A stretch of DNA of 62,056 bases, the filler included, from Sluysia triapertura (lineage: Eukaryota): NCBI GenBank assembly GCA_046118255.1. It is 4 parts of 4 records of this genome, joined end to end, with 100 filler letters (N's around TTAATTAATTAA, not from the genome) between each part and the next. Parts side by side here need not be neighbours in the genome. Positions count along the whole stretch, not along the records: positions 33,887 to 51,025 come from JBJNIA010192051.1; 3 more parts are not named here. The stretch is one strand, 5' to 3'. This document shows, in pieces, positions 11,750 through 62,056 of this stretch. The notes under the pieces are model-generated. The model saw only the letters and a program-made list of their open reading frames with translations, searched no databases and was not told where the DNA came from. Within the stretch, counting starts at the first letter, position 1. Every line of letters begins with the position of its first letter. The position numbers and the translations under genes were made by a program.

Positions 11750-12348
11750 TATTACTGTTATCATTATTGTTGCTATTTTCTAATGATTTTTTAATACATA
11801 CGTTTATAAAATTTATTATACTAAATCAATGATATAATGACAAAGTACAAAAGATGCCTGGATTTAAAAACAAAAATATGAATTCCTTTACTTTGAATTT
11901 ACACGATCTGTCTGTTATTTCTTTTATTTCTTGATATATTAAAATATGTTTAAAGTAGTTAAATGTCTTTAGATGTCTGAAGGTTAAATGTTTTAGTGTT
12001 GAAAACTTACGATTTCATTATTTTGAAATGATATAAATATTTTACTTAGATTTTAAATGTAAATTGATGATATGACTGAAATTGTTGTTTGAATGTTAAG
12101 AGATTGTGAATTCCAAATATGTTGAAAGAGAGTAGTTTCGTGGAAGTGGATTAGATAAATTATAGGCTATGTTTTGGTAAATTCAAAAAGGTAATTGTGT
12201 GATGATTTTGGTTATGTTAATATTGAACTATGTATGAAGATATTTATGATGAATTATTTTTGAATGTGAATTGTAGACTTTGAGGGTGAGTGAGGTTTGT
12301 TGTGTTGTAAGGAAAAATTTTAATAAAGGTGAAAGGTTGGCCACCACA
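11750..12348. repeat. Dispersed repeat family B-like copy ending in ...GGTTGGCCACCACA
   Basis: G/T-skewed sequence; tgaatgttaagagattgtgaattccaaatatgttgaaa resembles 28890-28925; terminus shared with 29122 and 35540; left boundary approximate. Confidence 0.6.
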
Positions 12349-14093: not shown

Positions 14094-14103
14094 TTTATAT
14101 ATA

Positions 14104-18540: not shown

Positions 18541-18988
18541 AAACGAATTGATTTAGAACCAGAGTATGATAAAGCCACTAAAAGCCTTGATGATATGAAT
18601 CTTAAAGACAATTTACTTAGAGGCATATGCACATATGTTTTTGAAAACCCCTCGGCAATTCAAACAAGAGCCGTGTTGCTTTCTATTGAAAGACATGTCG
18701 TTACGGCGCAAGCTCAACCAGTTATTGATGAAACTACTACATTTAGTGTTCATGATTTACAGCGAACTGATGTAATTAAAATTGAGCTCCAAGCATTAGT
18801 TTTCGCACTAACGAAAGACGTAGTAAAGCAATTACATAAAGCAGTAATTATTCTCAGTTACTATATGGGAGCAGAATCCTATGCATGCATTGGAGGTACT
18901 AGAGTACAAGAAGATGTTGGAAGTTTAGAGAACGCAGTTCATGTCATTATTGGGACCTCTGGCGGAGTTAATGATGTGATTGAAAGAG
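18541..18988 (+). pseudogene. eIF4A-derived DEAD-box N-terminal fragment with disrupted ATPase motifs (pseudogene or dead paralog); the frame stays open to 19686
   Basis: LDDMNLKDNLLRGICTYVFENPSAIQTRA (Q motif), AQAQPVIDETTTFS (Walker A SGTGKT lost), ALTKDVV (PTRELA lost), ACIGGTRVQED, IGTSGGV (TPGRV lost); no DEAD motif follows. Confidence 0.85.
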
Positions 18989-20060
18989 GTAATAAAATTA
19001 ATTTTATTCACACATTCAATTATTATTGTTACCACATTCATATTATTCTTATTAATTATAATTTTAGTATACAATGCAACGGATTTGGGCCTGCGAAGAC
19101 ACAAACACAGCAGAGATCAATTTCCATGGGTCAAAATTTATATAATCCAAATGCAAATTTGATAATAAACATTAATTGTATAGTCCTTTATTGTTATCGA
19201 ATGTACATAACTACAAATAAAAATTTCTTTTATTGTTATCGTATACGCTTAAGTTATGAAATGAACTATCAATGTCTTTATAGACCTTACTGTTTTCATA
19301 AACCGACCCAGTATCACAAAACAGCTATAAGTGACCATAAAATAAACAGAGACCATGAGTTCAGTAACATCTTTTACAATATCTTTTATAATAACATTGT
19401 AATTAAGTCATATATCAACCTAATGAAAGCGGTTATCCTGAACGATAAATTCATCGTCTTGCGTAATATTAAATCTAACCTAAGATTAACAAGGTCTCCC
19501 GAAGTATTAAAATGCGTTAAACTAGTGTATCATAAGATAAAAATAAACAAGATTATTTTTAATTACAAGCAACTACAGCCCTCCACGGAGTGCCCAAACA
19601 CATTTCTTACCACAACAATACATAAGTTGAAAAATCTAATAATCATTTTTACTAATACCTCTTATTTTTTTCACATTACGCCTTAATGTCACGTAATATC
19701 AATTATACTTTTTAAATAAACTTATTTTCAAATATTTTTGTAATATGAAAATTAATATTACATTCTGATACTTAACGGTAGATGATCAACTTTATTAGAT
19801 ATTCCTCGGAATGTTCTTGTGATGCTGAGTTTAAATTTTTCTCTGAGCAAATGGCTTCAAAACATCAGTATGCAATCATGCAATGTTTCTTCTTTCTACG
19901 TGAGGTCTGACTGACACAAAATTAAAATTGAAAATTAAAAGTTCACGTTTTATAAAGCGGAAATTATTTTAAATTGATCGGGATATTTATAAAATTAGCT
20001 TTAAAAAGTTTCAAAACTTCAGCTCAATATGTTTATTAATTACAAAAAATTAAAACAACT

Positions 20061-22499: not shown

Positions 22500-23085
22500 T
22501 CAGCAAAGTCAAATTTTAATTAATTTTTAATTATATAATTTTGAATTTTTTATATTTAGAGTGATGCAAATGCAATGAATGGAATATGAGATGATTGCTA
22601 TGAAAGAGGTGAATCTATAAGTGAGTTCGAAACGTTTGTAGAACGGTTTGTTTGAGATTAAGAACCTTAAACATTTTTCATTAGAAAATTGGTTGTGAAG
22701 AATCAAAAATTAATTCAATTCTAAAAAAGAAATTTAATTCATTACTTTTACGTACGTTAACAATATTGTTGATTGTTATTTTAATGTGAGAATTAATTTA
22801 AGTGAAAATAGATTGAGTAAAATAAAAGAAAACGATGATTGATAATAAATCAAATTTATACTTTTTGTACCTAATGAAGTTTCACAGACTGTACCATGTA
22901 ATTGTAAAGTTGTTATTGTCGGTCTAATTCTCAAAGAGGTTTTGATGATTTGTGTGAGAGTGTTTGATTGTGAGAATTGGGATTGATTGGATGATAACAG
23001 AGCATAAAATAAAAATTTTTTAAAATTTCACAACACAATCACACAACCACAATATCAAGATCCATGTTTGTGTGACTTCTAATTT
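22500..23085 (+). repeat. Dispersed repeat family C, copy 1 (partial)
   Basis: aatgaatggaatat..gattgctat..gtgagtt.gaaa.gtttgta..tttttcattagaaa..gtcggtctaattctcaaagaggtttt..caagatccatg is shared with 25215-25670 and, inverted, with 58790-59290. Confidence 0.85.
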
Positions 23086-23570
23086 ATTATTATTTTGTTA
23101 ATGTTAAAATTTTATGTATATTATAATGAAATCATTAATTAAAATAATTAAAAGTACAAAAATTAATTTAATTAAAAGTAGATAAAAAATTTCACTGCAA
23201 TTAAAAATAATATGTAATCTTATCAAAACATGTTATTTAGTAATTGATAATGTAATGTTTAAATTAATTTTATCTGAATAATTTAATGTACAATTTTATC
23301 TATGAACTTTAAAATAATTAGCAAAATTATTATAAACCTTAAAAAATTAATTAATGTCTATAATTGTTAATAATGTCTAAATTATTTAAATTATTAATTT
23401 TATCTTTATAATTTTTAAATATCTAATTTTTATCTATTAAATACTTGTATAAAAGCTACAGTTATTCCACATAACACTCACATAAAATTATTTACAAGTC
23501 TTTAATTATTAAAAAATCTACAACGTTTGTTGGAAGAATCTCGAGGAATTTCTGATCAATAATTATTCGA

Positions 23571-23632: not shown

Positions 23633-25214
23633 TAATTTGGGGAAATACTGGTTCAAAAGATTTCAAAGAAGAGTTCGATTTTGGAAAAATTTATCGATCG
23701 GTGGAAATTATTCGAAGAAGAATTTGTCATTTGGGAAAAGGAACAATTGATTAAAATTTTCGACGGATTTGCTGGAATAACTGTAAGCTATTTTTTATAA
23801 GTTCTATACAGTAATATACTGTATTAAAATACACTCAAAATCTAAAATTTTTGGAACCCAAAGATTAACTCTGGGTTAAAATCGCTTTAAAATTTGATAC
23901 ATAAATTAAGAGGAATCTTAATAATAATAATTTTAAAATTTTATTTATATTATCAACTTGATTACTTTGTTTCTTTGCATATTGAGTATCCTTGTAAAAA
24001 AGTTTAATTATTTCAATAAAATTTCATAGAGTACATCAAGTACTGAGTTTTGTTGTTTTATATTTCAAAAAGATAAATTTTAGTAGCAAATATAATTTAG
24101 AAGGCCCTCTGTCCAAGACTAAAGACTAAGGAATACTTTTCGTAGCGAATTATCTAATTACCTATAATTAAGTCTTCCGCTGGAAATAAATCTTAAATTA
24201 TAGGCGAACCCGTTAAGAATAAATTTATAATTGTTAGATATTTAAGGTTAAAATCTGAACAATATTATATTTATTGATAATTTGTGAAAATTATTTTTAT
24301 TATACAAAAATAAAATAGAAATTAAAGAATTAATTAAAAATTAAAGTTATATAAACATTTTAAATATTTAATCTGAATAATAATTACATATATTTACGTG
24401 TTTAAAATTTTGTTTAAAAAAATCAATTTTCAAAATATTTGTAAGTGACGCCAATATGTCGGATTTCAATATAAATAGAAATACAATTCAAACTTGGATT
24501 TAGAAATCAAGAGTATTTATTGGAATTTTTAAACAGATTTTTTTGTCAAGGATTGAATGGACTCCATGTCAAAGTAAAATTTTTTAAATAAGTTTTGTTA
24601 CACCTCTAATTTTAATTTCAATAGAGTTAATTAAAATACAACTTAAACTATTTTAATTTTTATCCTAGACCATAAAAAGGCTAAACCTAATTCAAACCTA
24701 ATTTAAAATCAAAAACAGCCTAAGAAATATTTCTTAAGGCTTAATATCTTATTATTACTATAATTATTATTGTTTTATTTAACTTTGTTTGTGTACAATA
24801 AACTTATTATGAAAATTATTTTATGCGATTGTTAAATTCGTATGTAATATATCTTCAGTGTATTTACTGTCTTTTCCTTATCATTTAATATATATAACAC
24901 TTTGTCAGACCACAACAGCTGATTTAATATCTAAAATAATTATACAAATCTGTCAGACCGTAAAAAGGCTGACTTAAATACATAAACATGTAAGGAGTAA
25001 TAATAAAGTAAAAGTTTTGTTACATTTTGAATCCTTTACCGCGATCTGAACACTTATAAGCATTCATCTTAGTAGCAATAAGTAGTTTTTCTTTTCTACA
25101 AATCTATTTAGAACGTCTTCGACCAGGTATAAAACGTATCTAAGACCCTCACGATCTTTTTTTAAGTATAAGTCTAAGTTTTATAAATAAAATACTTACA
25201 CTTAGAATGATGAA

Positions 25215-26360
25215 AAAATAATGAATGGAATATATGATTGCTATAGGAGAGTTTGAAGTGAGTTTGAAATGTTTGTACAATAGATTGTTTGATAATAAAA
25301 ATCTTAAATATTTTTCATTAGAAATTTGGGTGCGAAAAATCGAAGATCACTTGAATTCTAAAAAGTAAAATTAAATTCATTATTTTTGATTGATATTTTA
25401 ATGTGAGAAGTAATTTAAATAAAAATAGATTGCGTAGAGTAAAAGAAAATGATGATAAAAGAAAAAAGTGATAATAAATCAAAATTTCGTTTTTTGTACC
25501 TAATGAAGTTTGTTAGACCGTACCTTGTCGGTCTAATTCTCAAAGAGGTTTTAATTATTTGTGTGAAAGAGTATTTGGATGATGAGAAAGAATATAAAAT
25601 GAAAAACTTAAAAATTTTACAACGCAATCACAAAATCAAGAAGATCCATGATTTTGGTAAGACTTAAGTATTTTATTTTTATTATTTTAATTTTATTATT
25701 TTGATTATTGTTATTATTATTAGAGATAAATTTCTTTGGAATCCTTAAATTTTTATAATTTTCCCTTTTTATCTATTGATAAATTTGATTTTTGGAGGAT
25801 CCCTACCCAAATTTTTTTATAATTTTTCTATTACTAAGACTCAGTAAAATTATTTTGAAATATTCAAGCGATATTATTATTTTGACATTTAGATATTTAT
25901 ATATTTGATTTTTGGGAGAAGCCCTGCCCAAATTAATATTTAATCGTTATTAAGTTAGAATATAAATTATCCGAAAATATTTAAGTATTATTATTATTTT
26001 CAACTTTCTAGATATTGATTTTAGTTGCGCCAACTTTGATTTCTTTGTTATAGGTTAATGCGATTTTAATATTGTCATAAATATTATTGTTAATTTAGTC
26101 ATTTTATTTAATTCACTTGTATTACCGCATAAGCAGAAATTTATAATAACGACTTGTATTTGATTCTTGTAATTATTATATTATTGAGTTATTATTGTTA
26201 ATTTGAATTAAGAACGCAGTTTGTCGGTTGAATAAATATCATTAGTAATATTTAGTGAGTATTGAAATTATTGAGATTTTATTTAAGTAAATTAAACTTA
26301 TATTAATCAATTATTATTAATAACATTAAAGATGAATCATATTATTGATTAAACTAATAA
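25215..26360 (+). repeat. Dispersed repeat family C, copy 2 (~1.1 kb)
   Basis: Matches copy 1 and the inverted copy 3, e.g. ggagaagccctgcccaaatta and aacgacttgtatttgatt. Confidence 0.85.
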
Positions 26361-27162: not shown

Positions 27163-27616
27163 TTATATATAATATATAAAACTTGGACTAAGTTGTAAAC
27201 TGGATATAAGATTTAAGATTCGATTAGAATTGCTGTAGAAGGAATCCTCGTCGTTTACGTTTTGTCTTAATTCATATACATCGTGAGAATATTTGCAGTT
27301 GGAACCGTACTTTGAACATCTTCCATCTAACGATATACCATTCAGACAGATGCCACGTCTATAAAGGTCATTCTGAATGATCATCTTATGGGATTCTATT
27401 CTAATTGGTATATAGGAATTCGGATTGATCAAGGTTAGTTGCATTAACCGCCAAATCGGTTGTTAAATCATCTGTTGAAGTATGTGAGAATGTTGGATCA
27501 AAATTCATATCTGTCAAGTATATTAAAGGAATGTTACTTGACATTAAATATACAATGGAAGGATTGAAATTCAGTGCTGATTCGTATTGATTAACATTTG
27601 ATGAATTAACAGACAT
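27163..27616 (-). pseudogene. Unkempt-type CCCH zinc-finger gene, copy 1 (two overlapping frames: frameshift or unresolved intron)
   Basis: LYRRGIC-x9-C-x6-C-x3-H-DVYELR (finger at 27348-27283) has the same spacing as an Unkempt finger YYKTGICIHETDSKGNCTKNGLHCAFAHGPHDLR. Confidence 0.7.
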
Positions 27617-28254
27617 GATTTCATTCGAATTACATTTTGTATTAATTTGCTGTATATGGGAATACGAAAAGACATTACTAAAACGGACAAATTAAAATAT
27701 TGAAGTGTAGAATTCGATGAACTTGTAACTACAATAGTTATTGTTGAATTTATAGTTGAATCTATCTAACAGCATAATTTCATAGTATTATCATAAGTAT
27801 TTGAATGAGTCAAAGTACGTACATCATTGATATTTTGAGCTTGTTTCATTCGTTTTTATTACTTTCACTTGTTAGCATCAGCTCAATCAAATATGCATAA
27901 CTAAATTAATTTTTTTACTAACAAATTTATTTCAAAATATGCTTTTGTTCTCTTTATTACTAATTGTTTGATCTCAAATGAATTTTGTGGTAGCTCTTAT
28001 TTAAAATGAAATAATTCTTTATAATCATAATAAATTAACTTTTCATCTGTAACATTAATTTTTAATAATTTGAACATTGTTATGCTTAAATAAATTTTGT
28101 TGACTACTAAAATAATTTTTAAAATGTTAATTCACTTTTTGTTATGCATCGTAAAACTATGCCACTAATGCTAACATTAAATAAATTTTTAATCTCTATC
28201 TTTGTTTGTAACTTTTTTGTTTCTAGTTTTTATTCTTTTTATCTAATTTTATTT

Positions 28255-28474
28255 AAAAAATGATTGGATGGCTAATTGTAGTAAGTAGGATAGTAGCATT
28301 ATTGGTTGGCCAATGACGAATTGAATACCAATAAGCATTGAAAGATTTACCAATCATTTGCACAAATAACTTGTCTATATTGACAGGAAATGAATTAATA
28401 TAATACTGACGATAGTGATAATGATTATGACAGTAATAAAATAAAGTTGGTAATAATAATGAAATAAACTTTAA

Positions 28475-28511
<37 letters not shown>

Positions 28512-29122
28512 TAAAAATAATAGTAAAATAAAAATATACAATAAATAAAATTGCACAAATCCTTAAATACCTTCTCTGTTTTTTAATTCATTAAATATAA
28601 AATTAAAAACGAATGAAATTCTTTTAAAATAAAATCTTATTATAATTATTTCTTGAACGTAAATTCTTTCTGAATGTTCTTTTAATTCTTATTGTCATGG
28701 AAAAAGGATTTATGCAGCATACACTAAAAAATAACAATGTAGTTAAAAATGTTAAAAGACATTTTTATAAAAGGATGTCTAACGAAGATAATACGTAACT
28801 AAAATTGTTAAAAAAATTCCATTTTGATTGAAATGTTTAAAATGATTTTGAAATGTGAATTTAATGTTTTTCAATGATGTTAATGATTGAATGTTGAACA
28901 ATTTTGAGCTTGAAATGTTTTGAATACATTTTTGAAGTATAAATTCGATGATTTTAGATGTTGAGTAAAATTTTAATGCTAAACAATTATGAGTTTAAGC
29001 TGTTTTAAAATGTAAAAGGATTTTAATGAATCTGAAAAAGTGAAATGTGAAATATTAAGGAAAGTGATATTAATTATGTGTAAAAATGATTTAAATTTTG
29101 AGTAAAAAGGTTGGCCATCACA
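28255..29122. repeat. Dispersed repeat family B copy ending ...GGTTGGCCATCACA; contains an (AAT)n tract
   Basis: Inverted similarity to 41290-42200 (ttggttggccaat/tcggccaactaat; aatgttgaacaattttgagcttgaaatg/catttcaagttcacaattcttcaacatt). Confidence 0.7.
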
Positions 29123-30449: not shown

Positions 30450-32050
30450 ATAACACAAGGGGAAACGATCCCAGATCCACAATATTAACAGATTTAAAGT
30501 GTCGAGGAAGTAATTGGAGGATACTCGGTACCTTTAATCATTTCGAATGCTTGAAATGATTCAAGACTCATTGATTCCGAATTGCATGTTATCTGTTTAA
30601 GATGTGACTCCTTTTAAATTTGGATAGGATATTAGGAAATTCGGTTGGGAAAATTTTATGTATCGAGTTACAAAATTCGAAAAACGCATAATCAGCAGAA
30701 TAGAGGGACATTGGGGGCACTTACCTTTTTGTGTTCAATGTTGCTTAATAAAGTGGGCCGCAGTGTTGCATATTATTCCCTTTGTGGAGTCAATACAATT
30801 CCCTCAATTCCCTTTGTGGTTGGTAGTACATAAAGATATCAGGGTTCCGTTTGTATTGTAGGGCCAGCCTGATTTAGATAGGGTATACGTTGATGAAATA
30901 ATTCTTCTTTGGGTGGGTATACCGGAACCGCAAAAGAGTCATAAGTTACGAGGGGAGGTTTCCAAAGAAACAACGATTCAATAAAAAATAAAAAAAGATA
31001 AAAAGAATTCAGTGGTTCTGAATGTTTAAGACCCAGTAGAAAGTGTGGCCAAGTTGCGCATTTTGGAAGGTGAAAATTGTTTCAAAATACTTGTTCATTA
31101 TTGAACATTGCAAAGTAGGCAACAGTAGAATCAAACACTACCGAGTTAGCGTCAGAGATGTGTGCATCAAAAAAATCATGACTGGATCCAAAGATAGTCA
31201 ATCGGATGGGTGGGTGAAATTCAGATTTTTGGTAGTTTAATAAACTGTATAATACATTAGTGAGAAACATGTTTTGAATGCACTACTGGTGCACTTTTAC
31301 CTTCAATTAATTCATAGGGATAGTGAATTGGTGATTCCAGATAAAGTGTCTACGGAGTTCACTAAAATCACAGCGGTTCTTATTCGTAAGGCCCTTCGTG
31401 TTACAGTGGATGAGGGAGATAAAGATGTGGAAGTCAAATTTATGTGATACGACCGCTGAGTTCGATTTAGAAGTGGAGCTGTTATAGAGGTCAGCTGACT
31501 CAGAAATCGAGTGGTTGTCTGTGAGAGCATCTTGTTCGTATAAGCAGGGCCTTTCGGGGGCGTTCCTTAAGGATAAGATCATTAATATGATACTCACCAA
31601 TCGTTGATGTGTCTTCTCGGACGCAAAGGTCTTCTAAGACTAATTTTAAGGATGATGTAAAACAGTAGAGACTTAGGATCCAATAGTAGTCATAGGAGGA
31701 ATGGGGTAGGAGAGGAGGCGTAGGGAGGTTTGACACGGAAATATCTATTGTGACAATAAGGTTGTTGGAGTAGAAATCATTAGTAATGTATTGCTTCAAT
31801 ATTAAGCACCAGTTTTATCCGCAGATTATTGTGTTTGAATGGTTTCTCTTTACCCTTATTACATTGGAATAGGACCTGTCGATTACTTCTGTCCAGGTCA
31901 ATTACTCCTGACCTTTTCGTGTGTCCATTGCATAACCCGAATTCCTAGACTTTGAAACGTTGGCAGAAGTTTCTTATTGTGGCACCACGAGGGTGTGTAG
32001 TTTCATAAATTTTGTAATTGGGGCAAAAGTTACCTCAACCAACATGATGA
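30450..32050 (-). mobile_element. Heavily decayed and internally deleted Ty3/gypsy pol (RT-RNaseH-integrase order)
   Basis: Locally higher GC; reverse-strand fragments in order: PY..KSAP (RT), SDANSVV..VAY (RNase H), KSGWP, KCP (integrase Zn finger), TDNMQFGINE (like SDNGxQFxSxE). Confidence 0.6.
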
Positions 32051-33479
32051 AGTAATATACGTTTGGTGCAGGTACCTAGAAGACCACTCGGAATGATCAT
32101 GAAGGAGGTTCCTCAACCAACAATCTGACAATATTCGGCACATAGCTATTGCCTATTTCATCACAAAATGACATAGTGCCTCCAATAACCTTACATAAAA
32201 GAGGAGTTCTTTCATTGAGTACCAAATAAAGCTGAGTTATCAGTCCCTTCTAACAATTATATTTTATTATAGTCAATTAAACTATCCTATCACTATTCTA
32301 AATGGCACTCCACCATATTCAAGAACCAAATGGTAAACAGAAAAACATGAAATAAAGCTTCTTCAGAAATCTTCATACTTCTCGTCGGAATTATTTTCAC
32401 TCAAAAGCAGTTATCTATTTCATCAAAAAACCAACTTCTCCACATATTTACTCAAGTATTTGTGGAATATGCTCTTACATGACAAAATGCCCAAGTAAAT
32501 TTGACCGTTATATCATTACACAATATAAGCATGTCATACCAATAATCAATCGCCCTTAATTGATTATGTATTTAGATCCAGTAATAATTCTGATGAAATT
32601 ATTACTTCAATACATGATGCAAAATATTTGAATGACCTTTTAAATAGAAATAATAATGACGGAGATGGCACTTTATTAAAAGAATTAAATAAATGAAAGA
32701 GTAATTAATGAATAATTGACACAACGAATATCAAGTACCACAAATAAAAGTTAAATATATAAATAAATGTTATAAGAAATGTTAAATCAATCATCAAATA
32801 ACAGACAATTAACAATTAGCAGGTATAATGTAACCTAATCTCTAATGTCCCCAAACATTAAATCAATGTAAAACAAAATAATAACAAACCGTTATCCTAC
32901 AATAATATAAATTGAATCTAAGTCGCATTGTAACACAACAGTTGTAAATGCAATCAAAAGCAAACACCAACACAAAGTAACACATTTTACTTAAATAAAA
33001 TATTGAACGAACTTTAACAAACAACATACATATAATATCATGTAGACTTTAGAATTTTTTATCTAAATTTAAGATTCGTGTTAATCATCAGTGCTCATAT
33101 TGTTATCATTCAAAATAATATCATGGTGTAACTGGTTATTACGCATCTTTTATAAGTTACACTTTGTATATACCATTTTATCTATATTTTATCGTTCTAT
33201 TATTATTCTAGCACCATATTACTTCTTATTTCTTTTGAAACTATACGATGGTTTATGACATATCTACCGTTTGATATTAGTTTTAGGAACCTTATACTGG
33301 AAACTTATTCAAGATCACTTTCTACTTTAACTTTATTATCGATACATATCTTTTGTTTTACTACATATTCATCAAGTAAAGCTATTATTATCATTATTAG
33401 CATTACTCTGTACCACTTCATAGAATTAGGAAATAAAAACTGAATTATGTATCGCCATTTAACAAAATGTGGCAATTAT

Positions 33480-33886: not shown

Positions 33887-34077
33887 CACAATACTTTTGA
33901 AGATTTGTAACGTCTAATTAAGTCATAATAGTCAATTATTGTTTTTGTAATTGCTGATTGGAAAATGTTATCCAAATTATTCCTGATGCTGTGTAAAGTA
34001 TATACTTTTTTTGACATAAAACATAAAAATGAATTTTCAATAATTGTATAGTCTAGATACATTTTCACTAAAAATGT

Positions 34078-35540
34078 TGTTATTACTCATCCAATCAGGC
34101 CTTTAATAATGATAAATGAGAATAATAAGTCCTGATTGGAGGATGTGTGTTATTACTATTATTGTAGCAACCCAATTGACCATCATCAATGTTGGCACTT
34201 AAATAAGAATTGTGATACATAGTGTCAACACGGGTGATGGTAGTAACCAGTTTATTGACGTGACTTGAAATTAAAAATTAATAATTTGAATAAAATAATT
34301 TAATAATTGGTAATAATAATAACAACAATAACAATATTGTTATTATTATTATCAAGAATTAAAAGAAAATCGCATAAATTTCTCTTAAAATTACACTTTA
34401 CTTTTCTTTTAATCTTGATTTCTTCTGATATATAAAGATAAGAAAATGAAATAAAATTCGTCGACACTGTACGAAAGAGCAATGATAACAGGGTACATTA
34501 TGCCCGAGTTATCTTTGCTGCTTCGTTATAAAATTGAATTCTTTAAAACTGCATTAGATTTTGCTTAAATTCTTAAAAAGTTTTATCATGTTGAGGTAAA
34601 TTAAAATGTATTCGAAACTAAATATCTGAGTAAGAATTGTTTTGAAAGGATTGTTTAATATAATTAATCTTTGAAGGTATTATACTTAATCTGAATAGCA
34701 AAATGAAATAGAGAATGTTTGAATAAGGTATTAAATATTAATTGAAGTTTATAATTGAAAACGATGTTTAAGTATTGAAATATCGTGAAAAAAAAAGTTT
34801 ATTGAAAAGGTTGTAATTTATTGAATTTAAAAGGGGAATTACAATATAACTCTTGTATATTTAAGATGTTATTATGCTATGTTTTATGTGATTATTTTGT
34901 TTGGTGTTTTTAGTGTTGATGTTCTGTGTTAATGATGATTATGCATTGATGAATAGTGTATTTGAAATGTTGTACTTGATTCGAAGATGTGAAGTAGGTG
35001 CTTTCTATGTTTCAAGTATATTTGTTGATGTTGTGGAATAGTATTAAATGTATTTGTGGTTTATATGTTGTAAGTTTATGATTGTGGTTCGATTTAAGAG
35101 AATAAACTATTAAATGAATGTTATCGAATGTTAGATATTAATTGCCAAAATGTAGTGTAAGATGAAGGGTTTGGGAGTGTTAGATGTATTATTTCAAATG
35201 AGTTTATTGTTGGGTTTATGTGAATGTCGAGTTATGATTTTTGTGAATTAGTTAATGTAAATTGATAATGTTGAATATGATTGTGATTTGGTTTGAGCAA
35301 ATAAACTATTGAATAAGTGTTATTAATTATTAGGTATTAATTGTTAAAGTGTAATATAACATAAGGAGTTCGAAGTATTAAATGGATTATTTTGAATGAG
35401 TTTGTTGTTGAACTTTTATGAATGTCGTATAATGTTTTTTGAGAATTAGTTAATGTAATTTGGTAATGTTAAATATAAATGTGGTTTAGATGTTGTGGAA
35501 TTTTAATAAATTTTAGAGGTTATGAGTCTTGGCCACCACA
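34078..35540 (+). mobile_element. Repeat family A, copy 1: ~1.46-kb TG...CA element (solo-LTR-like) with three hairpins and an internal ~199-bp tandem duplication (35080-35278 / 35279-35478)
   Basis: Colinear with 61083-62056; starts TGTT and ends GGCCACCACA; no clear target-site duplication. Confidence 0.7.
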
Positions 35541-36745
35541 CTGAACTTACTGCCAGGATGAATTTGTGAAGTATCATCGCATCCACTTGGGTTGACATTG
35601 TGGTAAACAGAGCCTAACATTGAGAATTGAACAAGGTTCTGAATTAAAATTGTACAGGCTTTTAAGAATCCACGTCAATATTTTATAATTTACAAAATAA
35701 ATTTAAACAAATACAAAATCGGTGTTTAAAAGAATTCGGTCCTTAAAATGACTTCAAAATTTCTAAAATTGATTTTAAGCATTATTTAAAATATGCTCAA
35801 ATTTAATTAATATTAAACGAATGGTAAATGATAAATTTTACAATTGTTTTTTAAAAGTAATATCATCTTATTGATGATGAATTTGAATTTACCTGTAACT
35901 GCAATAGATTCCTTTTTAGGTAGAAGTTTATTTACCTTGGTTTTGGTGTAGTTTTCAACGTTTATCTGATAAAATTCGTGACTTAAGTTTTGTTGAGAGC
36001 ATTATTGTTAAAGCAAAAATTGATCTAATATAATTACATTTACAGAATTATATTATTATATTTTCAAATTGTATGGTTAATCTCGAACTAGCAATTTAGT
36101 TGTGAAAACTGCTCTAGATTATAAGTTTATTGATATGACATGAACTTTGAGCAGATACTATATGTATAATTAATTTAAGACAGTTTGATTGTTGTAATTA
36201 TCGACTTGATGCAAATCTGTCTAGTAATTGTTTACAATAAGATTGAGTGGAAATGAAATGAATTATTGTACAAGCTAACCTCAAATGATTACTCTCTTTT
36301 AGTGATAAATACGATTATCACTTATTATTTTTCAGTAACCTTATAAATTGCCTTTATTCTGATAAAATATCAAGACATTTGTGCTTCTAAATTGAATGTT
36401 TATTATTCTATAAAATTAATTAATTTATTATTCGTTAACTAGATTCCACATAATTTTACAAATTTATAATTTGACAAAGATAAAGTAAAATTTATTGATC
36501 AGGACACTTTTCTGAATTTTATTTTAAAATATCATTTCATTTTCAAAGGTATTAAAATATGTTCTTATTCGTCGGTGATGCTATATGATGAGACTTTAAA
36601 TTACATTTATTTAAATATTGCAAAAAATTATTCCTAAACGATAAATATTTTTTAACATTATTGATGTAACTAATATTACCGTAAATATACAAAGTTTAAT
36701 ACTAAAATAATACAATAAAAGATGTATTAAATCTGTTGGAATATT

Positions 36746-39700: not shown

Positions 39701-42700
39701 AGACAAATGGCATCAAACTTTGCAATATCATAATAATTTAACAAACAATTTATTAACAATTACTTATTAAAATAATAATAATGTTAAATTATTAAAACAG
39801 CAACATAATACTCAAGTAATACTCAATACAATGTAATATTTTATCGAATGTTTGAAACTATAAAATGCTACGCTTAATTAAATCGAATGTTTGAAAATAA
39901 AACGTTATAATGATACTTTCAAAATAAGTTTGTAAGACTTTCAAATAAGTTAAATATTATGCTCTAATTGATTGGAAACAATACAATAATCGAATGTATG
40001 AATATAATATAAAAATAAAAATGAATAATTTGTAAAATGGTGAGCCATACGAAACATATGAAATAAAGTTTAGAGGCTTAGAACTATCATTTACACTGAT
40101 TACACACTCCCATCTCTGTCAGCAGAGACAAGTAACGAAGACATAAAAATCAATATATATAAATTAAATAAAATAAAATCGATTAAGATTGTAGAGACTG
40201 AAATTAATTTGACAAGTGAGACTGATTAAATACGTAACACATACTAATAGTAGAAGAGATTTCAAACAGAATAAAAGTGTAATATAATCTTAATATTTTG
40301 TAATATTCATTTTGTAAAATAATGTCCACATCTTAAAAATAATACTCATTTTTATTATAAAACTAATGTTAAAATAATTATTATTCATGAGAATTTTAAT
40401 TCTAAAATAATATTAAAATAATTTTAAAAATAATGCTCAAAAAACTGCTGAGATTATAATGTTGTATCAATTTAAAATGAGATTACATACAGTTAATATA
40501 AATTCAAAATTTAGTAATAAATAAGAATCAAATTTAAATTGAAATTTTATAAATGAGATTCAATAATGACAATATGATATTAAAATTCATAAACATCAAA
40601 CCTAATTACTATAGTCAACAAATCATTTTAAATTAAGAATTAATAACAGTGATATGAAATCTAATTTTAAGAGCACAAAACTCGATCAAAATTGTCTTTA
40701 ACTCACGATTTAAAATATGTAAGATAAAATTATATTAAAGTGAGATTGAACAGAACTAGCATGTAATTAAAAACTAACAGCATTACTCTCAATCAAAACT
40801 ATTATTAGTGACTAAAATCATCTTAAATTATAAGTAATATCAAATTAAAATTCAGGCAGAAAGTACAATTAACAATACAATTAAAAAGAAAATATTAATG
40901 TTATATATTTGTAGTTCAACCAACACATAATATTGTATTAAATTTGTACTAAATATTTATAGTTATAACTAAACTAGTATTATATTTGACTAAAAACAAT
41001 CAAAAAATTTATTATTATTTACATTAAATAATTTACTATATTTGAATTTCCAGTAAATAATCTACTATATTATCATCAAATAATTAGAATTTAAATTAAA
41101 TAATTTACTATATTGTCAAATAATTGGAATTATATGCTAAAAAAAGGTATAAATATCAAAGTTTGAAAAATGAACGACGACTTGACGATACATGTGATCC
41201 TATTATTGATAAAAAATCAGTTTATCAACCGAGACTATTAAACGTGAAGTTACATTTATCCAATATCACCTTAAAGATCGCGATCGTGGCACCGAAACTC
41301 TTTACTATTATGCCTTCAAAACCATTAAAATTTTAGACATTTCAACACATTTCAAGTTCACAATTCTTCAACATTAAAATCATTAATTACATCAAAAACC
41401 ATTAAAATTATATTTTAAATTCAAATTTAGTAATATGTTAAATGGAATTTCGCTCAACGCCTTCAACTTCGTTAAATCTCTGTCATAATTTCTCTTTTCT
41501 CTAATTTTTTAACTATCTTTCCTTTTTCTCATTTTACGCAGTTTTATTTAGTTCAGCGTATAAATTCTCTTCAACAATTTATAACAAAGATTTCAAATTT
41601 AACAAATTCAAGTTTAACTACCTTAACATTACACAATAGTTCAAAGATTTTTAACTCAAACATTTATAGAATCAGAAATTTCAAGAAACTTATTTATTTA
41701 ATAAGATTTAATTAACAAAAAAGCAAGAATCGCAAAAAGACACGAATAGACTATACATTCACAAATCATCTACATTTTACCTTTCACTTAAAGAATTAGA
41801 AAAGAACTATTTCAATATTATATCAAAAAGAATTTCGATATTAAATAAAGAGAAATGTATGAAAGAGATGTTATGCATTGTAATTATTTTTATTCATTTT
41901 GTTATTTTTTATTATTATTCTCATTTTATTAGGATTATTAATCTTTATTATTATTGATTAATATTTGCATTATTATCACTATTATTATCTTCATTTTAAT
42001 TACGCCTGACAACAAATGGCACTTAATCATTTCAGGCTAACACAAATTTTACAACATTTAATCTTTTCTCACGTTAACTGAAAAACATTTCATTGAAATT
42101 TTAATTTAACATAGCAACAAAAAAGTAATTGCTCTCTATCGGCCAACTAATCAATATTCACAATAATTTGTTACAACACATTATTTTGTATAATTGTTTC
42201 ATTATTATACAAAATTCATTTTAGTAAACAATTTTTTTTAATGTTTTGATAATTATTTAAAAAACAATATATCTGAATCATTGGAAAATAAAAATATCAT
42301 TTCGTAAAGTGTATATTCTTTAATCAATGAAAAGTGTTAGTTTTCCAGATTTAAACAAATATTTAGATTTTCAAATGTTTACTAAAGTCATACCAAATGA
42401 CCATGATGAAACTCAAATAATCATGATGAAATTTAAATGTATAATAAAGTCATAACAAATGATTATGATAAAACTAAGTTCAATAATTTATTAAATAATC
42501 AGAGTAATAAAGAGATAACCCGTTCCATGAGTTTCAAATGAATGTTCATCTGTCAAAGATCTATTTAATAAATTTGTGTCAAAAACATTTAAATTCGAAA
42601 TCGATCGTTCGTAAACCGTACAAAGTATAATGTGAATAAATATAATGATAATTATATAAATATAATTAATTCCAATCTCAATGCATTGCTTGATTCAAAT

Positions 42701-44141
42701 ATTCAACAGCAATTAATCATGTCACATCGTCAGGTAAATGTGTCAAACATGCAGAACTTTGTTCGTATGCACATGGACTGAACGAGCTGGTACCAATCTC
42801 TGGAATGTTTAAAGAAAAATCATCTTGGCCGTCATATTGTCTTATCAACGACTTTAATCAAGTAAACTTTATTTGTTTTACAAATTTTATGATTCTTAAT
42901 ACTGATTTTAAATTTTTCATAATTTTATTTATAGGATGTGATGAAGAATGTCACATAGTATATTTAAGAAATAAAAAAAGAAATTTTTGTGTTTTTTATA
43001 AATTTTATCAATAAATGTTTAATAATTTATGTTATCTTTAGTATTAGTGAATTTTATAAAATTTCAGATATAAATTAGATAACCTTTAACTTTTTAATAA
43101 GATTTTATAATATGAATATATGTAACAAAAACATATTCTCATATAAATGGTGTAAAGGTATAATACCCCAAAAAAATCATAATTCAAGTTTAATTATTTC
43201 TATAAATATCAAATAAAATTAGAATTATTATTTTAAATAAATTTCATTGCAACTATACATTGCTTATTGTTGATTTTGAAATAAAACCATTGTAGTCTTA
43301 TTGAGTTTCTTAATAGAGAAAAGGGATTGTGAATAGAGTCACGGAATAAACACTGTAATAAGAGTCGCATAAAATAAGAACAAAAATTGACAAAATAAAA
43401 GTTTTGAAAGGAATAAGATCTTGAATGAGTAAAATTTTATAGAAAAATAAAGTGATATTGTCTCTAGAAGTTTGACAAAGCACAATAAGATAAGAACAAA
43501 TTAAATTAAAAAAAATTCTTTTTGAAGTAAACTATTAAAAAGGCACTTCTATCTCAAATATCTGAGACGAGTATTTCAGTTCACACTTCCAGATAAAGCA
43601 AACATAATAAACAAAATATAGATATTTCTTGCAGGATTAGTGAATAGGAGAAATTTATATTAATAAAAGATAGCACCTCCAGATAAATTTAAATAATAAT
43701 ATAAAATGAAAATATTAAAGAGGTTTAGACCATTACCAGAAACCAAGAGTTCATTGCAAGCACCCTCAAACTTTATTAAAGAATCACTTATTAAATTAAT
43801 TTTTACAAAAGCTAAAACCCATTACATATTATTTGTCAAACACATTCTATTGCTAAGCCTAATTTCTTAAATTTTACATTAATATAATAATAATATAAAT
43901 TAATGATTAAAAAGCTAACCTTTTCTGCTATAACCATATAATTGCTGTTTGAAACTCTTGAAACGCACATAGAAACTATTCGGGTTTTGAAAAAATTTTT
44001 ATTTGATAATACTTCCGCTTTAGAAATGTCAATAGTAATAAGATCACAATTTGATAAAGCCACGTATATCTTAAATTTTAAAACACACCAACAATCAATT
44101 GTTGAGGTAAACAATGCAATTTCCTTCACGGGACTCGAACA
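36746..44141 (-). CDS. 3' part of a WD40/beta-propeller-like protein gene (exons 44141-43920, 38396-38247, 37003-36746; 5' exons not identified)
   Basis: All junctions are phase 0 GT-AG; the spliced product contains IVSMCVS..YMVIAEK|DGTVQCLD, HDIHCVSLD..LVLADSRKMIHRY and QPITAVLV..DIFLASGNELISIKL*. Confidence 0.65.
37118..37313. mobile_element. piggyBac-type MITE (196 bp) inside an intron
   Basis: TAAA-cacgtttgttgc ... gtagcgaacgtg-TTAA: imperfect TIRs flanked by TTAA-like sites. Confidence 0.65.
41290..42200. repeat. Dispersed repeat family B, inverted copy inside the 5.5-kb intron
   Basis: Reverse-complement similarity to 28255-29122; boundaries approximate. Confidence 0.65.
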
Positions 44142-44466: not shown

Positions 44467-45316
44467 CGTCAAAATATAACAATCAAAAAAGTCGCCAGTT
44501 GAAAATATAGCTGAATTAAAAATAACATTAGTAAAGAAACTTATGTAATTCATATGTGATTTTTTCCATATAGGATTCATATATGGAAAATTCACATAGA
44601 ATTTTTTCCAGATCTGAACTGTTCCACTCTACTTTGATTTAGATCTTGTTCCTTTAGAATAGCGTCTACATTGATGCTAAGAACTTAATTGTGAACTGAA
44701 AGATCTGTGTCATCCTTCAACTGAATTATTATCCTCAAAACATCATAACAGTTCTATAATTCAATATGAAACCTCGCTATTGTTGTGGAATAATTTAATT
44801 CATTAACGATGTTGGTGATGGTAATGGATATATAGTTTGTCTTCTTTCTTGTTAAATAGTTTTGTTATTACTTTGGATTTTCGGAAGTGATGTAGATGTA
44901 GCTTGTGATAATTTTGATGCTGATAATGGTATTATTTGTTGTAAATGTCCATTAATTTCGTTTATTATTTTTCGTGCATTAATATTATCTGGATTAGAAA
45001 TGTGTCTATGATTGTTCAATTCCCATATAACTTAATTACCTTTTGTGTGACATCTTCCTTTACATTTACCAGACCTAAATTCCACACAACGCCAAATATT
45101 AAATTCGTTTTCCATTGCTTTTGAATATAAAATTTTCCTTTTTGACTCCTAATAAAATCCATTGTTGGATGTTAATATAAGCAATATAAATATAATTTAA
45201 ATGAAATTAATGAAGATACGGCTACATAATTTAATAGAATGTAATAAAAATTATAATTTTATAATTTTTATATATTATATTTTGTTTGCGATATTTTTGT
45301 TTGCTATATTTGGACG
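44467..45316 (-). mobile_element. Internally deleted Mutator-like element (FLYWCH-MULE transposase remnant) with TIRs
   Basis: ATG at 45162: MDFIRSQKGK..WRCVEFRSGKCKGRCHT..NNHRH (FLYWCH), LPKIQS..PLPSPTSL..IP, then NNSVEG*HRSF..LKEQ; TIRs cgtcaaaatataacaatcaaaaaagtcgc and gcgatatttttgtttgctatatttggacg. Confidence 0.8.
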
Positions 45317-48800: not shown

Positions 48801-50472
48801 CAATATTTGCCAATATATTGTCGTATATTTATGTAAATCTTAATTTTTATGCATAGTTTTATTTTAATTCAAACTATAAAATTCAATAGTTCAAATATTT
48901 TTTAAAAATGTTCAAAATCTATTTCATGAAAATATTGTACATAAGATGCATTATTTACAAAATATCGGTGAAGAAAGCGCCCATTCGGATCTAGGATTAG
49001 CTGAAGGAAAATTATACCACCAAATAAAATTAACAAGCACCACAAGAAGAGTCAAACTAATATTTAAATGCTCAACTAAGAAAACTTCAAACTACAAAGT
49101 TAAAAGTTATAAATAGTATTTACGCATAAATTACTCCATGTATTTGTAATACGCTTCCAAAATTTTTGAATATTAGAATATCATTATTATATATTTACAT
49201 TATATAAATTATTACAAACATTAAATAAAAATAAAAATGATAAGTATAAAATATCTTTCTTTAAAAAATCCATTTTAATTATATCAACGATAAAAGTGAC
49301 TGTAGAAGGTCACCTACAAAAATAACCCACCATTAACTGACACAAAGAAATTCTTTTGTACGTGTTTCGGTGATACAATATATTTATTGATTAATGAAAG
49401 TCTTAATTTAAAAATTTTTCTAATCAATTTTAGGAAAGTAAATAGTATATATTTAAAATTAAATGTTTGTTTAGAAAATTCAAAGTTATATGCATAAATA
49501 TTTTTGAGATGAAAACATTATTGAAATTTGTAACTTAATTATGAATTTTGATATATTGTTTAGGTACCTTTAGGTTAAGTGATAAAAAAAGTCTTCAAAA
49601 GCTTATAAATGTAAAATTCAGATCACGTACAAAAGTTATAACTTATGGCAAAGGTATATTTTCGACTCGTCTTTATGTACTATCGTTCACAAAGTATTCA
49701 ATTTATATGGCATAATATAACATAATAAAACATGACTAAACTAATAATGAAAAAATTTAAGAAACAATAAAAAATTATCATCTCTGAATAATAATAATAA
49801 TAATTTAAACAAACGAAAATGCATTTCATTTATGAGTTTGGGTTTGGTTGAAAAAACCAGAGCGGTTTTAAATTATTTTGTCCATAATTTGATAATTTGT
49901 AGTTTTTTTCTTAAAAGGAAATTGAGTTAAATTAAAATTAAGTTTTCAATAAAATAAAATTTAATTAAGAGAAGGTGATACGATTTAGGCCGTTTTAAGA
50001 TTTAAGAACAGTTCCTTAGTGATTTTATTAAGTTGGTTGATATTGAAATGTGTCTGAGAGAAATATTTATATTGCTTACTAATTTTATGCAGATTATACA
50101 GCGTTTATGGATGCATTGCACGAACAAGTTGATTCGAAGTTACCAAATCTGCCATCTTGAATTTTTAACACAATAAATAAGGGGTATTGAACTTTGATAC
50201 CATTTATTTGAATTATTACAGTGAATTACATATTTAATTAATAAAATCGAACTATTTAATTTAATTGATATTATTAGAAAATTGTGACTGTAAAACAAAA
50301 AAACATGTATTGACTAAACATGACAAGAACTAAAATTTTTAATAAGATCATAAAAAAGCAATATATAAAGTTTATTTTTCCTTGAATATGCCATCGAAAG
50401 TATTTTGCTTTTTTTCTAAATAAAAATAAAAATATATAATTGCAAATAAAATCAAGAAAATGTGATTATTTA

Positions 50473-50986
50473 CCTTAAGTATGTCAAAACTTTGAGGACT
50501 GGACGAGATGTTAGCTTGCTGACCATTGGTAAGTGTGAGACAATTGATGGAAGGTTTTCCAAAATCTGGTGTGGTTCTTAAACTTGATAGTAAGTAATGA
50601 ATTAGCTTACTATGATCATCGACCTTTGGCATGAAATAAATATATTTATAGCCAAATATGACGCATTCACCTGCTTCATTTGACTCATAAATACACAGTG
50701 CTATTTTATAATATCTTGGATGGAATTTATTTTTGCTGTTTCTGATCTTGATATGCGAGTATTGTTGATTGATTTTGAAAGGATATCAATAGCCGATAGA
50801 ATTTGGTTATTATTACTTAATCTGATAAAAGTACTAGGCGTTAGTGCTGAAGTTGAAATTGGATAATTAATACTTGCTACGTTTCTGACGATATTTGAAC
50901 AAAGAGCATCAGGAAAAATTGCTGAGATACTATCATTAACACTAGAATTACCAAGGCAGTCAAAATGACGGCTTTTAATTTTCTTG
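50473..50986 (-). pseudogene. Unkempt-type CCCH zinc-finger gene, copy 2 (frameshifted; third Cys to Tyr, His lost)
   Basis: KFHPRYYKIALC-IYESNEAGE-C-VIFGYK-Y; the flanks match copy 1 (NSSVN..SNI; INQQYSHIKI vs INPNSYIPIRI; LLSSLRTTPDF vs LISSLQLSPSF). Confidence 0.65.
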
Positions 50987-52040: not shown

Positions 52041-52489
52041 GGCCAACCTTATCGTGTAAAATTTTATCACATTATAATATATAAAACCTAGTAACTTTAC
52101 ATCTTAACCATTTATTCCATCATAAATCATTAAATTGTAAATTAAATTCAAAATATAATATCAAACAAATGGAATGTTTCGTCTTCATCTTCTTTCTTTA
52201 ATCTGTTTTGTTTCTCTTCATCGTTATCCAATTTGATCGTACGGTATTCTTGCATTATTTTTGTTTCATCCACCGTCAATCTACTCAAACTCCTACCAAG
52301 TCCATTACTTTCAGATTCTTCACTATAATCATCATATTCTTGTGTTTCGTAGTTATAATTTACTTGTGTCCTACCATTTTATTATTTTTCTCATTAAACC
52401 TTACCTTTCTTGATGGAGTTTGTCCCATTACTGGTTGATAATTTTGCATCATACTTAAATCTTGGTTAAAAGTATCTTATTTTAATTTA

Positions 52490-53711: not shown

Positions 53712-53716
53712 AATTT

Positions 53717-59430: not shown

Positions 59431-60877
59431 CTAAGTAAAGCTTAAATACTCCGCGTCATAGAAGAAACAAATATGATTCATATCAATAAAGAAGTTCGTG
59501 AATGGACTAACGTTTTGTATTTCTAAAGTAATAGTTATGTCAAAGATGGTCGTATTAATGTTTAATAACAATATTTTATGAATAATAGAGATAACTACGG
59601 TTGCTTTTAACAGTATACGTGTCCCATGTTTTATTATTTTTATAAGTATAGACTTATACTTAAGTTCGTGGTTATAGCTATCGTACATCGTTAAAAGCAA
59701 AATATTAACTTTTGGAACCATTGAATTAGAACTAGACATTTTATTTTAAAGAACTACTAAACAAAATCTAATTGAATTAATGTTTTTGAACAAAAGTAAA
59801 TATCTATTTTTATTGAAGAATTCCTCCATTATTCGAAATTCATATTCCACTAAATCTTGTTGTCCCAGCAGTTCCAGATTCTAATTTTGTCATCTAAAAT
59901 ACAGAATAATAAAGGTAAAAAGTCAAATCTTACGTATGAAATCTTAACAAGTACCATCTTCCTCATAAACTTAAACGGACACGTATTTATGGTAGGTTTC
60001 AGACTTCTTTCGACTAACAATGGTACAATTAATTTTTGGCTTGACACGAATAGAATTATCTTATCAACTCGTAACGTGATCGGATATCTTGGAATGACGG
60101 TTTCCTTTCTTAAAAGTAACGATTTGATCGGTTTCCGATTAACTATTCTTAACAGGTACTTCTTAGATCGTGACAAACATACAAAAAATTTCACAACTGA
60201 TAGATATGATAGAATGTTTGCTTCTGCATCAAGATATATGATGAATGAAATAGTTAATGATCTAGTTCCTTTTGGTTGATCTTGAAGAATTGCTTTATTA
60301 ATTATGTATTTGTTGCTTCTAAGCAATAGACTTGATTTAGCTTTTGTTCTAGATATGAATAAGCCATAAAACATCAGAAAAACACCCTTTGACACAAATA
60401 ATTGTTCTTGATTCATTTCATTGATAACGTAATTTAGGACATAATTTATTAGAGATTTACAACATGTTGTTAATCTAAAAATATTTATATTTATAATAAA
60501 ACGAGGAAAAGGAATTTTAGAATTACTCATGATTATATTACTTGAAAAAGAAACTTTGGTATAACAATCAAACGAGTCAATTTTAGTCGATTCTGGTTAG
60601 CAATTGAATCAGTATTAACTTTTTGACTTGGTCTACGAGATTTATCAATTTTACACCAACTTATAGTTAGTGTCTTATTACAACTTTCAATTTCATCTTT
60701 TTCCTCATCATCCATCCAAAATGCTTCGGCGTAGAGATGGTCTTCACCTGGAATGTGTGAATCTTTATCAAAACTCTGTAAAATACTGTTAAGATTACTT
60801 GGATCATGATTGGGAACATTATAAAAGATAGCTGTTTGGATCTGAACTTTTTTGCGATTACAAAAAGGTATTATCAT
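59431..60877 (-). CDS. Putative spliced gene of unknown function
   Basis: Three adjacent minus-strand ORFs (114, 226 and 102 aa) with plausible GT/AG sites between them; no recognisable motif; exon boundaries unresolved. Confidence 0.4.
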
Positions 60878-61082
60878 GTAACCATTTGAAACTTATTCGG
60901 CTTTTTGTTTACGATCTAGAAAGATTTCATCAAACTCGTTGGATTTCGGTAGCATTGAAACCTTTATCAATTTTTTCGCCAACAATTTGTTATACGTAAC
61001 ATAAAAATCGGATCATTTTAGTAAGATTTAAAATTCCAAAGATGTATAAAAATTTCTGCTAATCAAAAAAATGATATTCTAC

Positions 61083-62056
61083 TGTTCAGCTCACCCAATC
61101 AGAGTCTTAGCAATAACAATTAATTGTATGAACTCTGATTGGGTGGTGTACAAAACTATTGACATGAAATGAAGATCGATACAACTGATGATTGACCATC
61201 ATTAGTGTTGGCACTTTAATGAAAAATGTAACGTATAGTGTCAACACTGGTGATGGTAGCAACCAGGTTGATCGTCATTTAATTGAATTTATTTTAATTT
61301 ATATTTTATAAAAATAATTTAATGTTTAATAGTACTAACAATAATAATAATAATAATAGCAATAATATCAACGATAATACTGTTATTATTATTGTTATCA
61401 TTAATAAAACGTATAAACCTTGCTTTTTAAATAAAAGACACGAATTTTTCTTTCGAATTCTTTTATTTCTGATATATTAAAATAGAAATGAAAAATAAAA
61501 ACTATTGGTATTATGCGAAGGAGCAACGGTAACGTGGTATATAATGCCTCAGTTATCGTTTCTGCTTCATTTCTGAAATTAATTTCTTTAATTAAATTTG
61601 TTTAGAATTTTTGAAGGTAAAATGATTTGAGTTCTAAGTGAAATGAAGAATGTTAGAATAAATTCTTGAGATTTATTTAAGGTTTATAGTTGAAAACAAA
61701 ATTTATGCATTGAATATAATGGTTTGAAAGGCTTGTTAAAAGATTATAGTTTATTAAATTTAAAGGAAAATTACAAAATAAATCTTGGCGTATTTACGAT
61801 GCTGTTGTAAAAAGTTGATAATGGTTATGGGTAGATTAAATTGGTTGTAACGTAAGTATTTTCTATGTTTCAGGTACTTGTTAATGTTGTTAAATGATAT
61901 TAATGTATTTGTGATTTATATGTTATAAGTTGTGATTGTGATTTGATTTGAGAGGATAAATTATTAAATAAATGTTATTGATTGTTCGGTATTAATTATC
62001 AAAATATAGTGTAAGGTGAATGATTGAGAGTATTAGATGAATTGTTTGAGATGTGT
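61083..62056 (+). mobile_element. Repeat family A, copy 2 (runs off the window end)
   Basis: Colinear with 34078 to about 35200, including all three hairpins. Confidence 0.75.

Follow-up and report, generated by a model that had tools for sequence, protein, structure and literature searches.

The hairpins described here form one conserved, folded module, which lies at the inner end of a mobile repeat of ~1.5 kb that is very abundant in Sluysia triapertura, and a separate RNA gene is not indicated. That the repeat belongs to a mobile element we hold with high confidence, and there is an about even chance that the stems are the R/U5-type stem-loops of a Ty3/gypsy-like LTR read on the minus strand, an assignment that does not extend to a clade. 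The hairpin module is real and its high-copy repeat looks uncatalogued; no description of the element appeared in the literature searched (by topic, not by sequence), and it may already be catalogued in Repbase or Dfam. Two copies lie in the window, that is, the whole stretch of 62,056 nucleotides that was analysed; copy 1 borders an assembly gap and copy 2 is cut by the window end. The window has a GC content of ~25% and eukaryotic content, with protein matches to INTS2, a DEAD-box remnant, a Cys/Met lyase, I-set and Unkempt-type CCCH fragments. The INTS2, I-set and CCCH matches and the ~32-nt intron carried by INTS2 would suit an AT-rich, animal-like host genome.

The original prediction placed three stems, A, B and C, in each copy, and all three were recovered there; a fourth hairpin, D, had been absent from it. 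The hairpins are as follows.

34088..34142, hairpin A of copy 1, strand-symmetric and free of G-U, with an inverted CCAATCAG/CTGATTGG core and also two inverted CCAAT boxes
61092..61145, hairpin A of copy 2, strand-symmetric, a perfect 14-bp stem
34179..34241, plus strand, hairpin B of copy 1, a 21-bp stem (2 G.T, 2 mismatches) with a 21-nt loop
61195..61257, plus strand, hairpin B of copy 2, a 21-bp stem with 3 G.T, an island with the greatest run X1 depth in the hairpin block (see below)
34299..34364, hairpin D of copy 1, an (AAT)n..(ATT)n microsatellite palindrome between B and C
61331..61410, hairpin D of copy 2, (AAT)n..(ATT)n, between B and C
34472..34525, plus strand, hairpin C of copy 1, a bulged stem with a 5-nt loop and one conserved U-G pair
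61517..61568, plus strand, hairpin C of copy 2

Against dinucleotide shuffles, the plus-strand RNA folds gave z-scores in copy 1 and copy 2 of -2.8 and -6.6 for A, -3.6 and -5.7 for B, -4.5 and -3.6 for C, and -8.9 and -5.4 for D, and the values for B and C agreed in a second shuffle fold analysis. When both strands of the window were scanned for local folds, B of copy 2, A of copy 2, C of copy 1 and B of copy 1 ranked 1, 2, 4 and 7 among the best 40 folds listed. Hairpin A of copy 1 scored 21.7 bits against the hairpin B model (34082-34157 against 34175-34251; a rough E of 0.005) with similar loop edges, and the two hairpins may derive from an old tandem duplication. Searches with covariance models of hairpins B and C detected no third copy of either in the window. 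Two more long AT-rich palindromes, both single-copy, are located at 44531-44620 and 15340-15375.

Between the copies, stem columns were identical at 87 of 106 and loop columns at 31 of 53 (Fisher p=0.002), which bears out the claim that the stems are kept above the loops. The drift of the spacers, claimed along with it, is only partial. The unstructured G/T-rich block at 34990-35200 is 82% identical between the copies (169/206), not significantly lower than the B stem (39/42; p=0.11), and conservation is therefore not confined to the stems. Compensatory changes had likewise been proposed for all three hairpins, and only those of hairpin A were found: three of its 15 pairs (not two) changed on both sides, a number equalled or exceeded in 49 of 500 shuffles, against none of 21 pairs in B and none of 17 in C. 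What is conserved in hairpins B and C is the sequence, and not through compensation.

The span first proposed, 34090..34526, lies within the repeat, which is far longer. Homology between the copies runs from hairpin A rightwards, up to the window end in copy 2, and the skewed arm of copy 1 reaches 35540; left of hairpin A it was not significant (175/1000), with one sub-stretch at 8/300. The features of the arm and of its outer end are the following.

34426..34436, TATA-like motif TGATATAT(A/T)AA, also at 61470 and 11932
34600..35528, strand-skewed arm body of copy 1, with internal duplications
61600..62056, skewed arm body of copy 2, cut by the window end
35529..35540, minus strand, outer terminal motif of copy 1, TGTGGTGGCCAA on this strand, where the G/C skew stops
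12337..12348, minus strand, outer motif at the end of a more distant skewed arm (~11700-12348), left of which lies an ORF
29111..29122, minus strand, outer motif with 1 change that ends a skewed arm with (AAT)n, five CCAAT boxes (28263-28350) and then a CCCH zinc-finger ORF
33983..33986, plus strand, candidate 4-bp target duplication CTGA with its partner at 35541-35544, then TG, possibly chance (0.10 expected per kb)

The plus strand of the arm contains 4% C and 21% G. A tandem unit of 198 bp is repeated 2.1 times at 35077-35487, and a second duplication with an offset of ~158 bp starts from 34560. In copy 1 the skewed body ends sharply at TTGGCCACCACA (35529-35540). The outer motif, TTGGCCA(C/T)CACA, occurs three times in the window at up to one change, against 0.002 expected, and the skew ends at it in all three arms. 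As the DNA beyond the motif is unrelated among these arms, it marks the end of the element; a tRNA primer site following an LTR was also considered for it and is disfavoured by the same DNA, which is unique in the window. The bodies of the distant arms are weakly alike (z of 3.4-6.4 relative to local shuffles; controls reached 3.1), and target-duplication candidates at two other arms were at chance level. AATAAA is present at 35505 on the plus strand, and on the minus strand at 34256 and 61293, just before B. A fourth TTGGCCACCAC match at 14106 (opposite strand; 13930-14360) has no skewed arm and lies in what is presumably a different, Tc1/mariner-like remnant.

The multiplicity of the repeat was assessed in run X1, the single sequencing run listed by a run search (0.59 of the words). 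As this run is possibly the source of the assembly, its multiplicity is not independent evidence. At a likeness of at least 80%, 3,582 of its contigs were placed on 59300-62056 (2,757 bases), and the depths given here are sums over contigs, not copy numbers. Summed depth was 254-742 at ORF sites, ~2,070 at hairpin A, ~6,090 at hairpin C and 42,608 in hairpin B (at 61203), against ~1,450-1,850 in the spacers around B (61151-61176 and 61285-61288), and it rose to 87,232 in the arm body, the highest value of the examined stretch 59300-62056. Among the contigs listed, one is identical to the copy 2 locus and has a depth of 21.9. Division by this depth gives ~12-34 for ORF sites, 55-95 for hairpin A and the spacers, ~1,950 for hairpin B, ~280 for hairpin C and up to ~4,000 for the arm body; these ratios, which are rough and are not copy numbers, suggest that related copies of hairpin B number on the order of a thousand, and those of the adjacent orphan ORF tens. 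The repeat is abundant at a high and uneven multiplicity, with hairpin B standing out as a conserved island and the arm in great excess over the ORF. The non-coding mobile element with a conserved fold, one of the options offered originally, is supported by this high copy in run X1 and by the depth of hairpin B (~42,600) over the spacers beside it.

Next to the inner end of copy 2 lie two features of the minus strand.

59434..60892, minus strand, broken orphan ORF in three frames (119, 248 and 104 aa), running away from the arm and multi-copy in run X1
60967..60994, minus strand, candidate inner LTR end, made up of TATAACA (which fits YNYAACA), a 6-nt spacer and a TGG-starting 15-mer

The 248-aa piece had no relative in 1.84 billion representatives, a word-indexed search, the Atlas or PDB sequences, none of the three pieces matched Pfam or PHROGs, and a single-sequence structure model of the ORF reached a pLDDT of 32.5. 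The ORFs are co-directional: the ORF or remnant beside each of four arms (60892, 11136, 27691 and 42694) runs along the direction of the G-poor strand. A likeness of the copy 2 ORF to the ORF beside the 12348 arm (19 of 2000 shuffles) had been picked from 45 comparisons and was not accepted. Non-coding, strand-skewed repeats of a second family, ~1.2 kb long and 64-69% alike, were observed at 22505-23430 and 25101-26344 on the plus strand and at 58132-59357 on the minus strand. The last member of this family abuts the far end of the orphan ORF, which is thereby flanked by an arm on either side, each C/A-rich when read inwards. Two inverted repeats of ~250 bp (9069-9313 and 57705-57915) form a pair that is 68% alike, and the second copy adjoins this second family.

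On the LTR reading, the element would be laid out on the minus strand from a TG start (35540) through a long, G-poor, U3-like body with tandem duplications to the TATA-like motif, followed by hairpins C, D, B and A in an R/U5-like position, a CA end, a degenerate primer site and the orphan ORF. We infer this layout together with a minus-strand RNA and a role for the stems: copies with an intact fold would replicate better, through priming, 3'-end processing or dimerisation/packaging, and the fold would be kept for that reason. Copies with an ORF would be far outnumbered by terminal repeats that are solo or non-autonomous. In an excerpt on LTR structure, conservation is described as concentrated in or beside R/U5, with stem-loops (PMC2664473). 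On the minus strand the outer end of copy 1 starts with TGTGGTG, a match to TGTGGYG, which an excerpt of PMC3601003 gives as the 5' integrase motif of the CsRN1 clade; in copy 2, TATAACA at 60994 matches YNYAACA, the general 3' consensus in the same excerpt. Each match is weak alone (YNYAACA has a chance rate of 1.8 per kb, and two of the four TGTGGYG sites in the window are unrelated), and the two ends come from different copies. The TGG 15-mer of copy 2, part of a primer-like site that we take to read poorly as a tRNA 3' end, agrees at 11 of 15 positions with the PBS-like site of a gag remnant at 53711; of 5 matches to that site (at most 4 mismatches), this 15-mer is the one non-self match that has ACA directly upstream (0.07 expected). 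This remnant (52480-53720, minus strand) is a decayed, putatively gag-like ORF that retains traces of a zinc knuckle and is preceded by a primer-like ACA..TGG site; the gag label is our own reading, with no Pfam gag match.

Several observations speak against an LTR of the usual kind. No second LTR or partner repeat was found in the window, and the inner end of copy 1 has neither YNYAACA nor CA..TGG. The site after the inner end of copy 2 differs from the tRNA-Trp site of CsRN1-like elements, as far as an excerpt of PMC2582038 describes it, and the orphan ORF pieces showed no CHCC motif. As the adjacent ORF has no similarity to Gag/Pol in Pfam, PHROGs, PDB sequences, the 1.84 billion representatives or the Atlas, the element is not filed as an autonomous Ty3/gypsy member; as, in addition, the ends come from different copies and copy 1 is without inner motifs, it is not filed in any clade. 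The repeat resembles the LTRs of animal Ty3/gypsy (Metaviridae) retrotransposons with a CsRN1-type 5' end, described in excerpts of PMC3601003 and PMC2582038, in its TGTGGYG-type outer end, the YNYAACA of copy 2, the tandem duplications of a low-complexity body, the conserved stem-loops near one end and a terminal repeat far in excess of the ORF. Unlike them, it has no paired LTR, no tRNA-Trp primer site and no Gag/Pol, its stems B and C fold better on the plus strand, which is antisense in the LTR model, and its length is ~1.5 kb against the 146-381 bp given for the LTRs of CsRN1-like elements in the same excerpts.

Related classes were compared as well. An Rfam search, proposed originally as a check, returned 0 matches at E<=1 in the window, and local Rfam searches returned 7 and 11 weak matches, all far below gathering scores. 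The retrozyme-like RNA proposed among the options was not borne out, as no hammerhead ribozyme was present among the matches at E<=1 or among the 7 and 11 weak local ones, which argues against a retrozyme. Non-autonomous LTR elements of the LARD and VL30 type have a long non-coding terminal region, conserved structure and no recognisable pol. The repeat is alike in its long, structured, non-coding terminal region without a recognisable pol, and differs in that the structure sits in a terminal arm adjoining an orphan ORF and that no autonomous partner was identified. A pattern of the hairpin B 3' arm had 0 matches in metagenome and viral contigs; the two-arm pattern had none in viral contigs and one in metagenome contigs, an intergenic palindrome of 53% GC flanked by ORFs of bacterial type, which is otherwise unlike the repeat and was set aside as chance.

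An element-borne RNA of the plus strand, either a structured ncRNA that runs through B, D and C into a G/U-rich body ending near AAUAAA..CCACCACA or a pre-miRNA, is the strongest alternative and on balance unlikely. Its transcription would start from CCAAT boxes at hairpin A acting as a bidirectional promoter, with the ORF expressed leftwards from the same promoter; dicing of hairpin B may yield a small RNA, and such a plus-strand RNA can coexist with an LTR origin. In favour of this promoter, CCAAT boxes are clustered in the interval from arm to ORF at three of the five arms examined (4, 2 and 5 against ~0.5-0.7 expected), whereas the two other arms (near 11400-11700 and 42000-42400) have 0 and 1. 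AATAAA or AGTAAA lies 22-36 nt before the outer end on the plus strand in all three arms (expectation 0.24 per 30 nt), and a G+T excess usually marks the sense strand, according to an excerpt of PMC10030826; the hexamer and the G+T excess both favour a plus-strand transcript, against the minus-strand LTR.

The G-U pairs, from which a plus-strand RNA had been deduced, carry less than was claimed. All three non-Watson-Crick pairs of hairpin B in copy 2 are indeed G-U on the plus strand, and copy 1 has two true mismatches (A.G and A.C) that had been omitted. Position 61203 reads C in most run X1 contigs (depth 41,863 of 42,608; 92 contigs; the one of the three G-U sites among the 40 of 482 rows listed), so that its pair is C:G in most of them and the G-U is a change private to copy 2. 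Two G.T pairs of B and one of C are common to both copies, and a plus-strand fold would be compatible with these three shared wobble pairs. Five of 7 distinct G.T/A.C mismatch sites favour the plus strand (p=0.23). Hairpins B and C fold better on the plus strand in both copies (-33.5 against -26.4 kcal/mol for B and -22.8 against -11.2 kcal/mol for C in copy 2), but they do so with DNA as well as RNA parameters, and the preference is therefore no pointer to RNA. Among 482 variant places of run X1, counted as changes relative to copy 2 with ORF and arm pooled, A>G on the plus strand is 1.95 times T>C (p=1.4e-5), as on a transcribed sense strand. Such a substitution bias of the element's plus strand would turn Watson-Crick pairs into G.T without selection, and the wobble pairs therefore do not show RNA. 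With these three results, a plus-strand RNA is not established by the G-U pairs, and the lack of double-sided changes in B and C also speaks against it.

Animal pre-miRNAs are hairpins of ~60-65 nt with a ~22-nt duplex and a ~11-bp basal stem, and small-RNA reads map to both of their arms, starting at uniform 5' ends and offset by 2 nt. Hairpin B, with 65 nt and two 22-nt arms offset by 2 nt, has the size and the duplex of the pre-miRNA-like shape ascribed to it and no canonical basal stem on the plus strand, as its flanks are unpaired there in both copies at 86 nt, with only a bulged alternative in copy 2. The small-RNA precursor cluster, suggested along with this shape, fits hairpin B and fails for A, C and D, which are not pre-miRNA-shaped. 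Compared with animal pre-miRNA clusters, hairpin B is alike in size, in duplex geometry and in arms that are better conserved than the loop; it differs in the missing basal stem, the lack of a known family (best Rfam scores of 23 bits against cut-offs of at least 70), the three unfit companions and the high-copy repeat around it.

A non-autonomous rolling-circle DNA element (Helentron/HINE- or Replitron-like) is doubtful. The plus strand would be displaced as ssDNA, its hairpins bound by a Rep/HUH enzyme and the skew caused by deamination. The DNA folds favour the plus strand, and a loss of C from one strand fits single-stranded exposure in an excerpt of PMC10030826; hairpins are general to Rep transposons in one of PMC10288648. 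The order of end hairpins, microsatellite and tandem repeats resembles DINE-1/HINE as described in an excerpt of PMC4067079, and the end hairpin, the microsatellite, the internal tandem repeats and the high copy number are shared with those elements, with the microsatellite and central tandem repeats being common in Helentron/HINE and not exclusive to them. The same excerpt defines Helentron/HINE by 12-15 bp subterminal inverted repeats at both ends. No such pair was found here, the best having 10 of 12 matches and an inconsistent placement in the 3 arms. The end folds are weak and differ among the three arms, with a T run beside the outer motif in 2 of them and no compact terminal palindrome, and the frames scanned held no Rep/helicase. 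Unlike the DINE-1/HINE of the excerpt, the repeat showed no short 3' palindrome in these end folds and has four large hairpins in place of one small one. Replitrons are described from plants, algae and protists in the portion of the literature consulted.

A cassette-type mobile element is a more speculative reading. Here a constant skewed arm with a bidirectional CCAAT promoter would serve interchangeable orphan ORFs one way and a structured, ~1.4-kb G/U-rich RNA ending in ..CCACCACA the other way, the RNA being the replicating template or a source of hairpin-B small RNA, in about a thousand copies. Decayed Unkempt-type CCCH zinc-finger ORFs were observed at 27166-27462 (minus strand), 42694-43011 (plus strand) and 50375-50785 (minus strand), the first two downstream of related skewed arms (28200-29122 and 41285-42000; z 8.3), which suggests that such ORFs are element-borne cargo. 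Very unlikely is an origin from organellar or plasmid-like extrachromosomal minicircles, the repeat being their integrated constant region, in which one skewed, hairpin-bearing control region serves many one-gene cassettes. The excess of arm depth over ORF depth, the similar arms beside unrelated ORFs and the strong G/T skew would suit it; against it, no recognisable mitochondrial ORF occurred under codes 5, 9 and 14 among the matches listed, no tRNA gene was found in the window, and CCCH ORFs of nuclear type are among the neighbouring cargo. A mitochondrial insertion is unsupported for the first two of these reasons.

A host microRNA cluster or stand-alone multicopy RNA gene is scarcely credible: the four ~55-80-nt hairpins in tandem and the score of A against the B model recall one, but they form part of a 1.5-kb repeat with an unstructured body that equals them in conservation and exceeds them in abundance, the copies decay by private changes, and no Rfam family matches. 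Least probable are neutral fold-back palindromes kept symmetric through intrastrand repair, which would accord with the strand symmetry of A and D and the non-significant covariation but not with B and C, whose sequence is kept and whose bulges and wobble pairs stay in place, nor with the >20-fold depth island of B.

As an LTR-like repeat, the element would be one more uncatalogued transposon family, mainly of interest for its lineage. Its hundreds to thousands of diverged copies offer real power for covariation testing, and it shows how strand-biased mutation can mimic G-U "RNA evidence". Its significance would be greater if the arm made its own structured or small RNA, and if one arm carried swappable orphan genes it would provide a route for gene-family expansion in the genome. 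Elsewhere in the window, a multi-exon gene at 236-6150 (plus strand) encodes a repetitive Cys/Lys-rich protein, and the exons examined matched nothing in Pfam or the Atlas; a GC-richer (~40%), decayed, coding-like stretch at 30500-32300, with no Pfam or PHROGs match, is possibly a retroelement remnant; and a degenerate eIF4A-like DEAD-box ORF at 18541-18990 (plus strand) adjoins an assembly gap.
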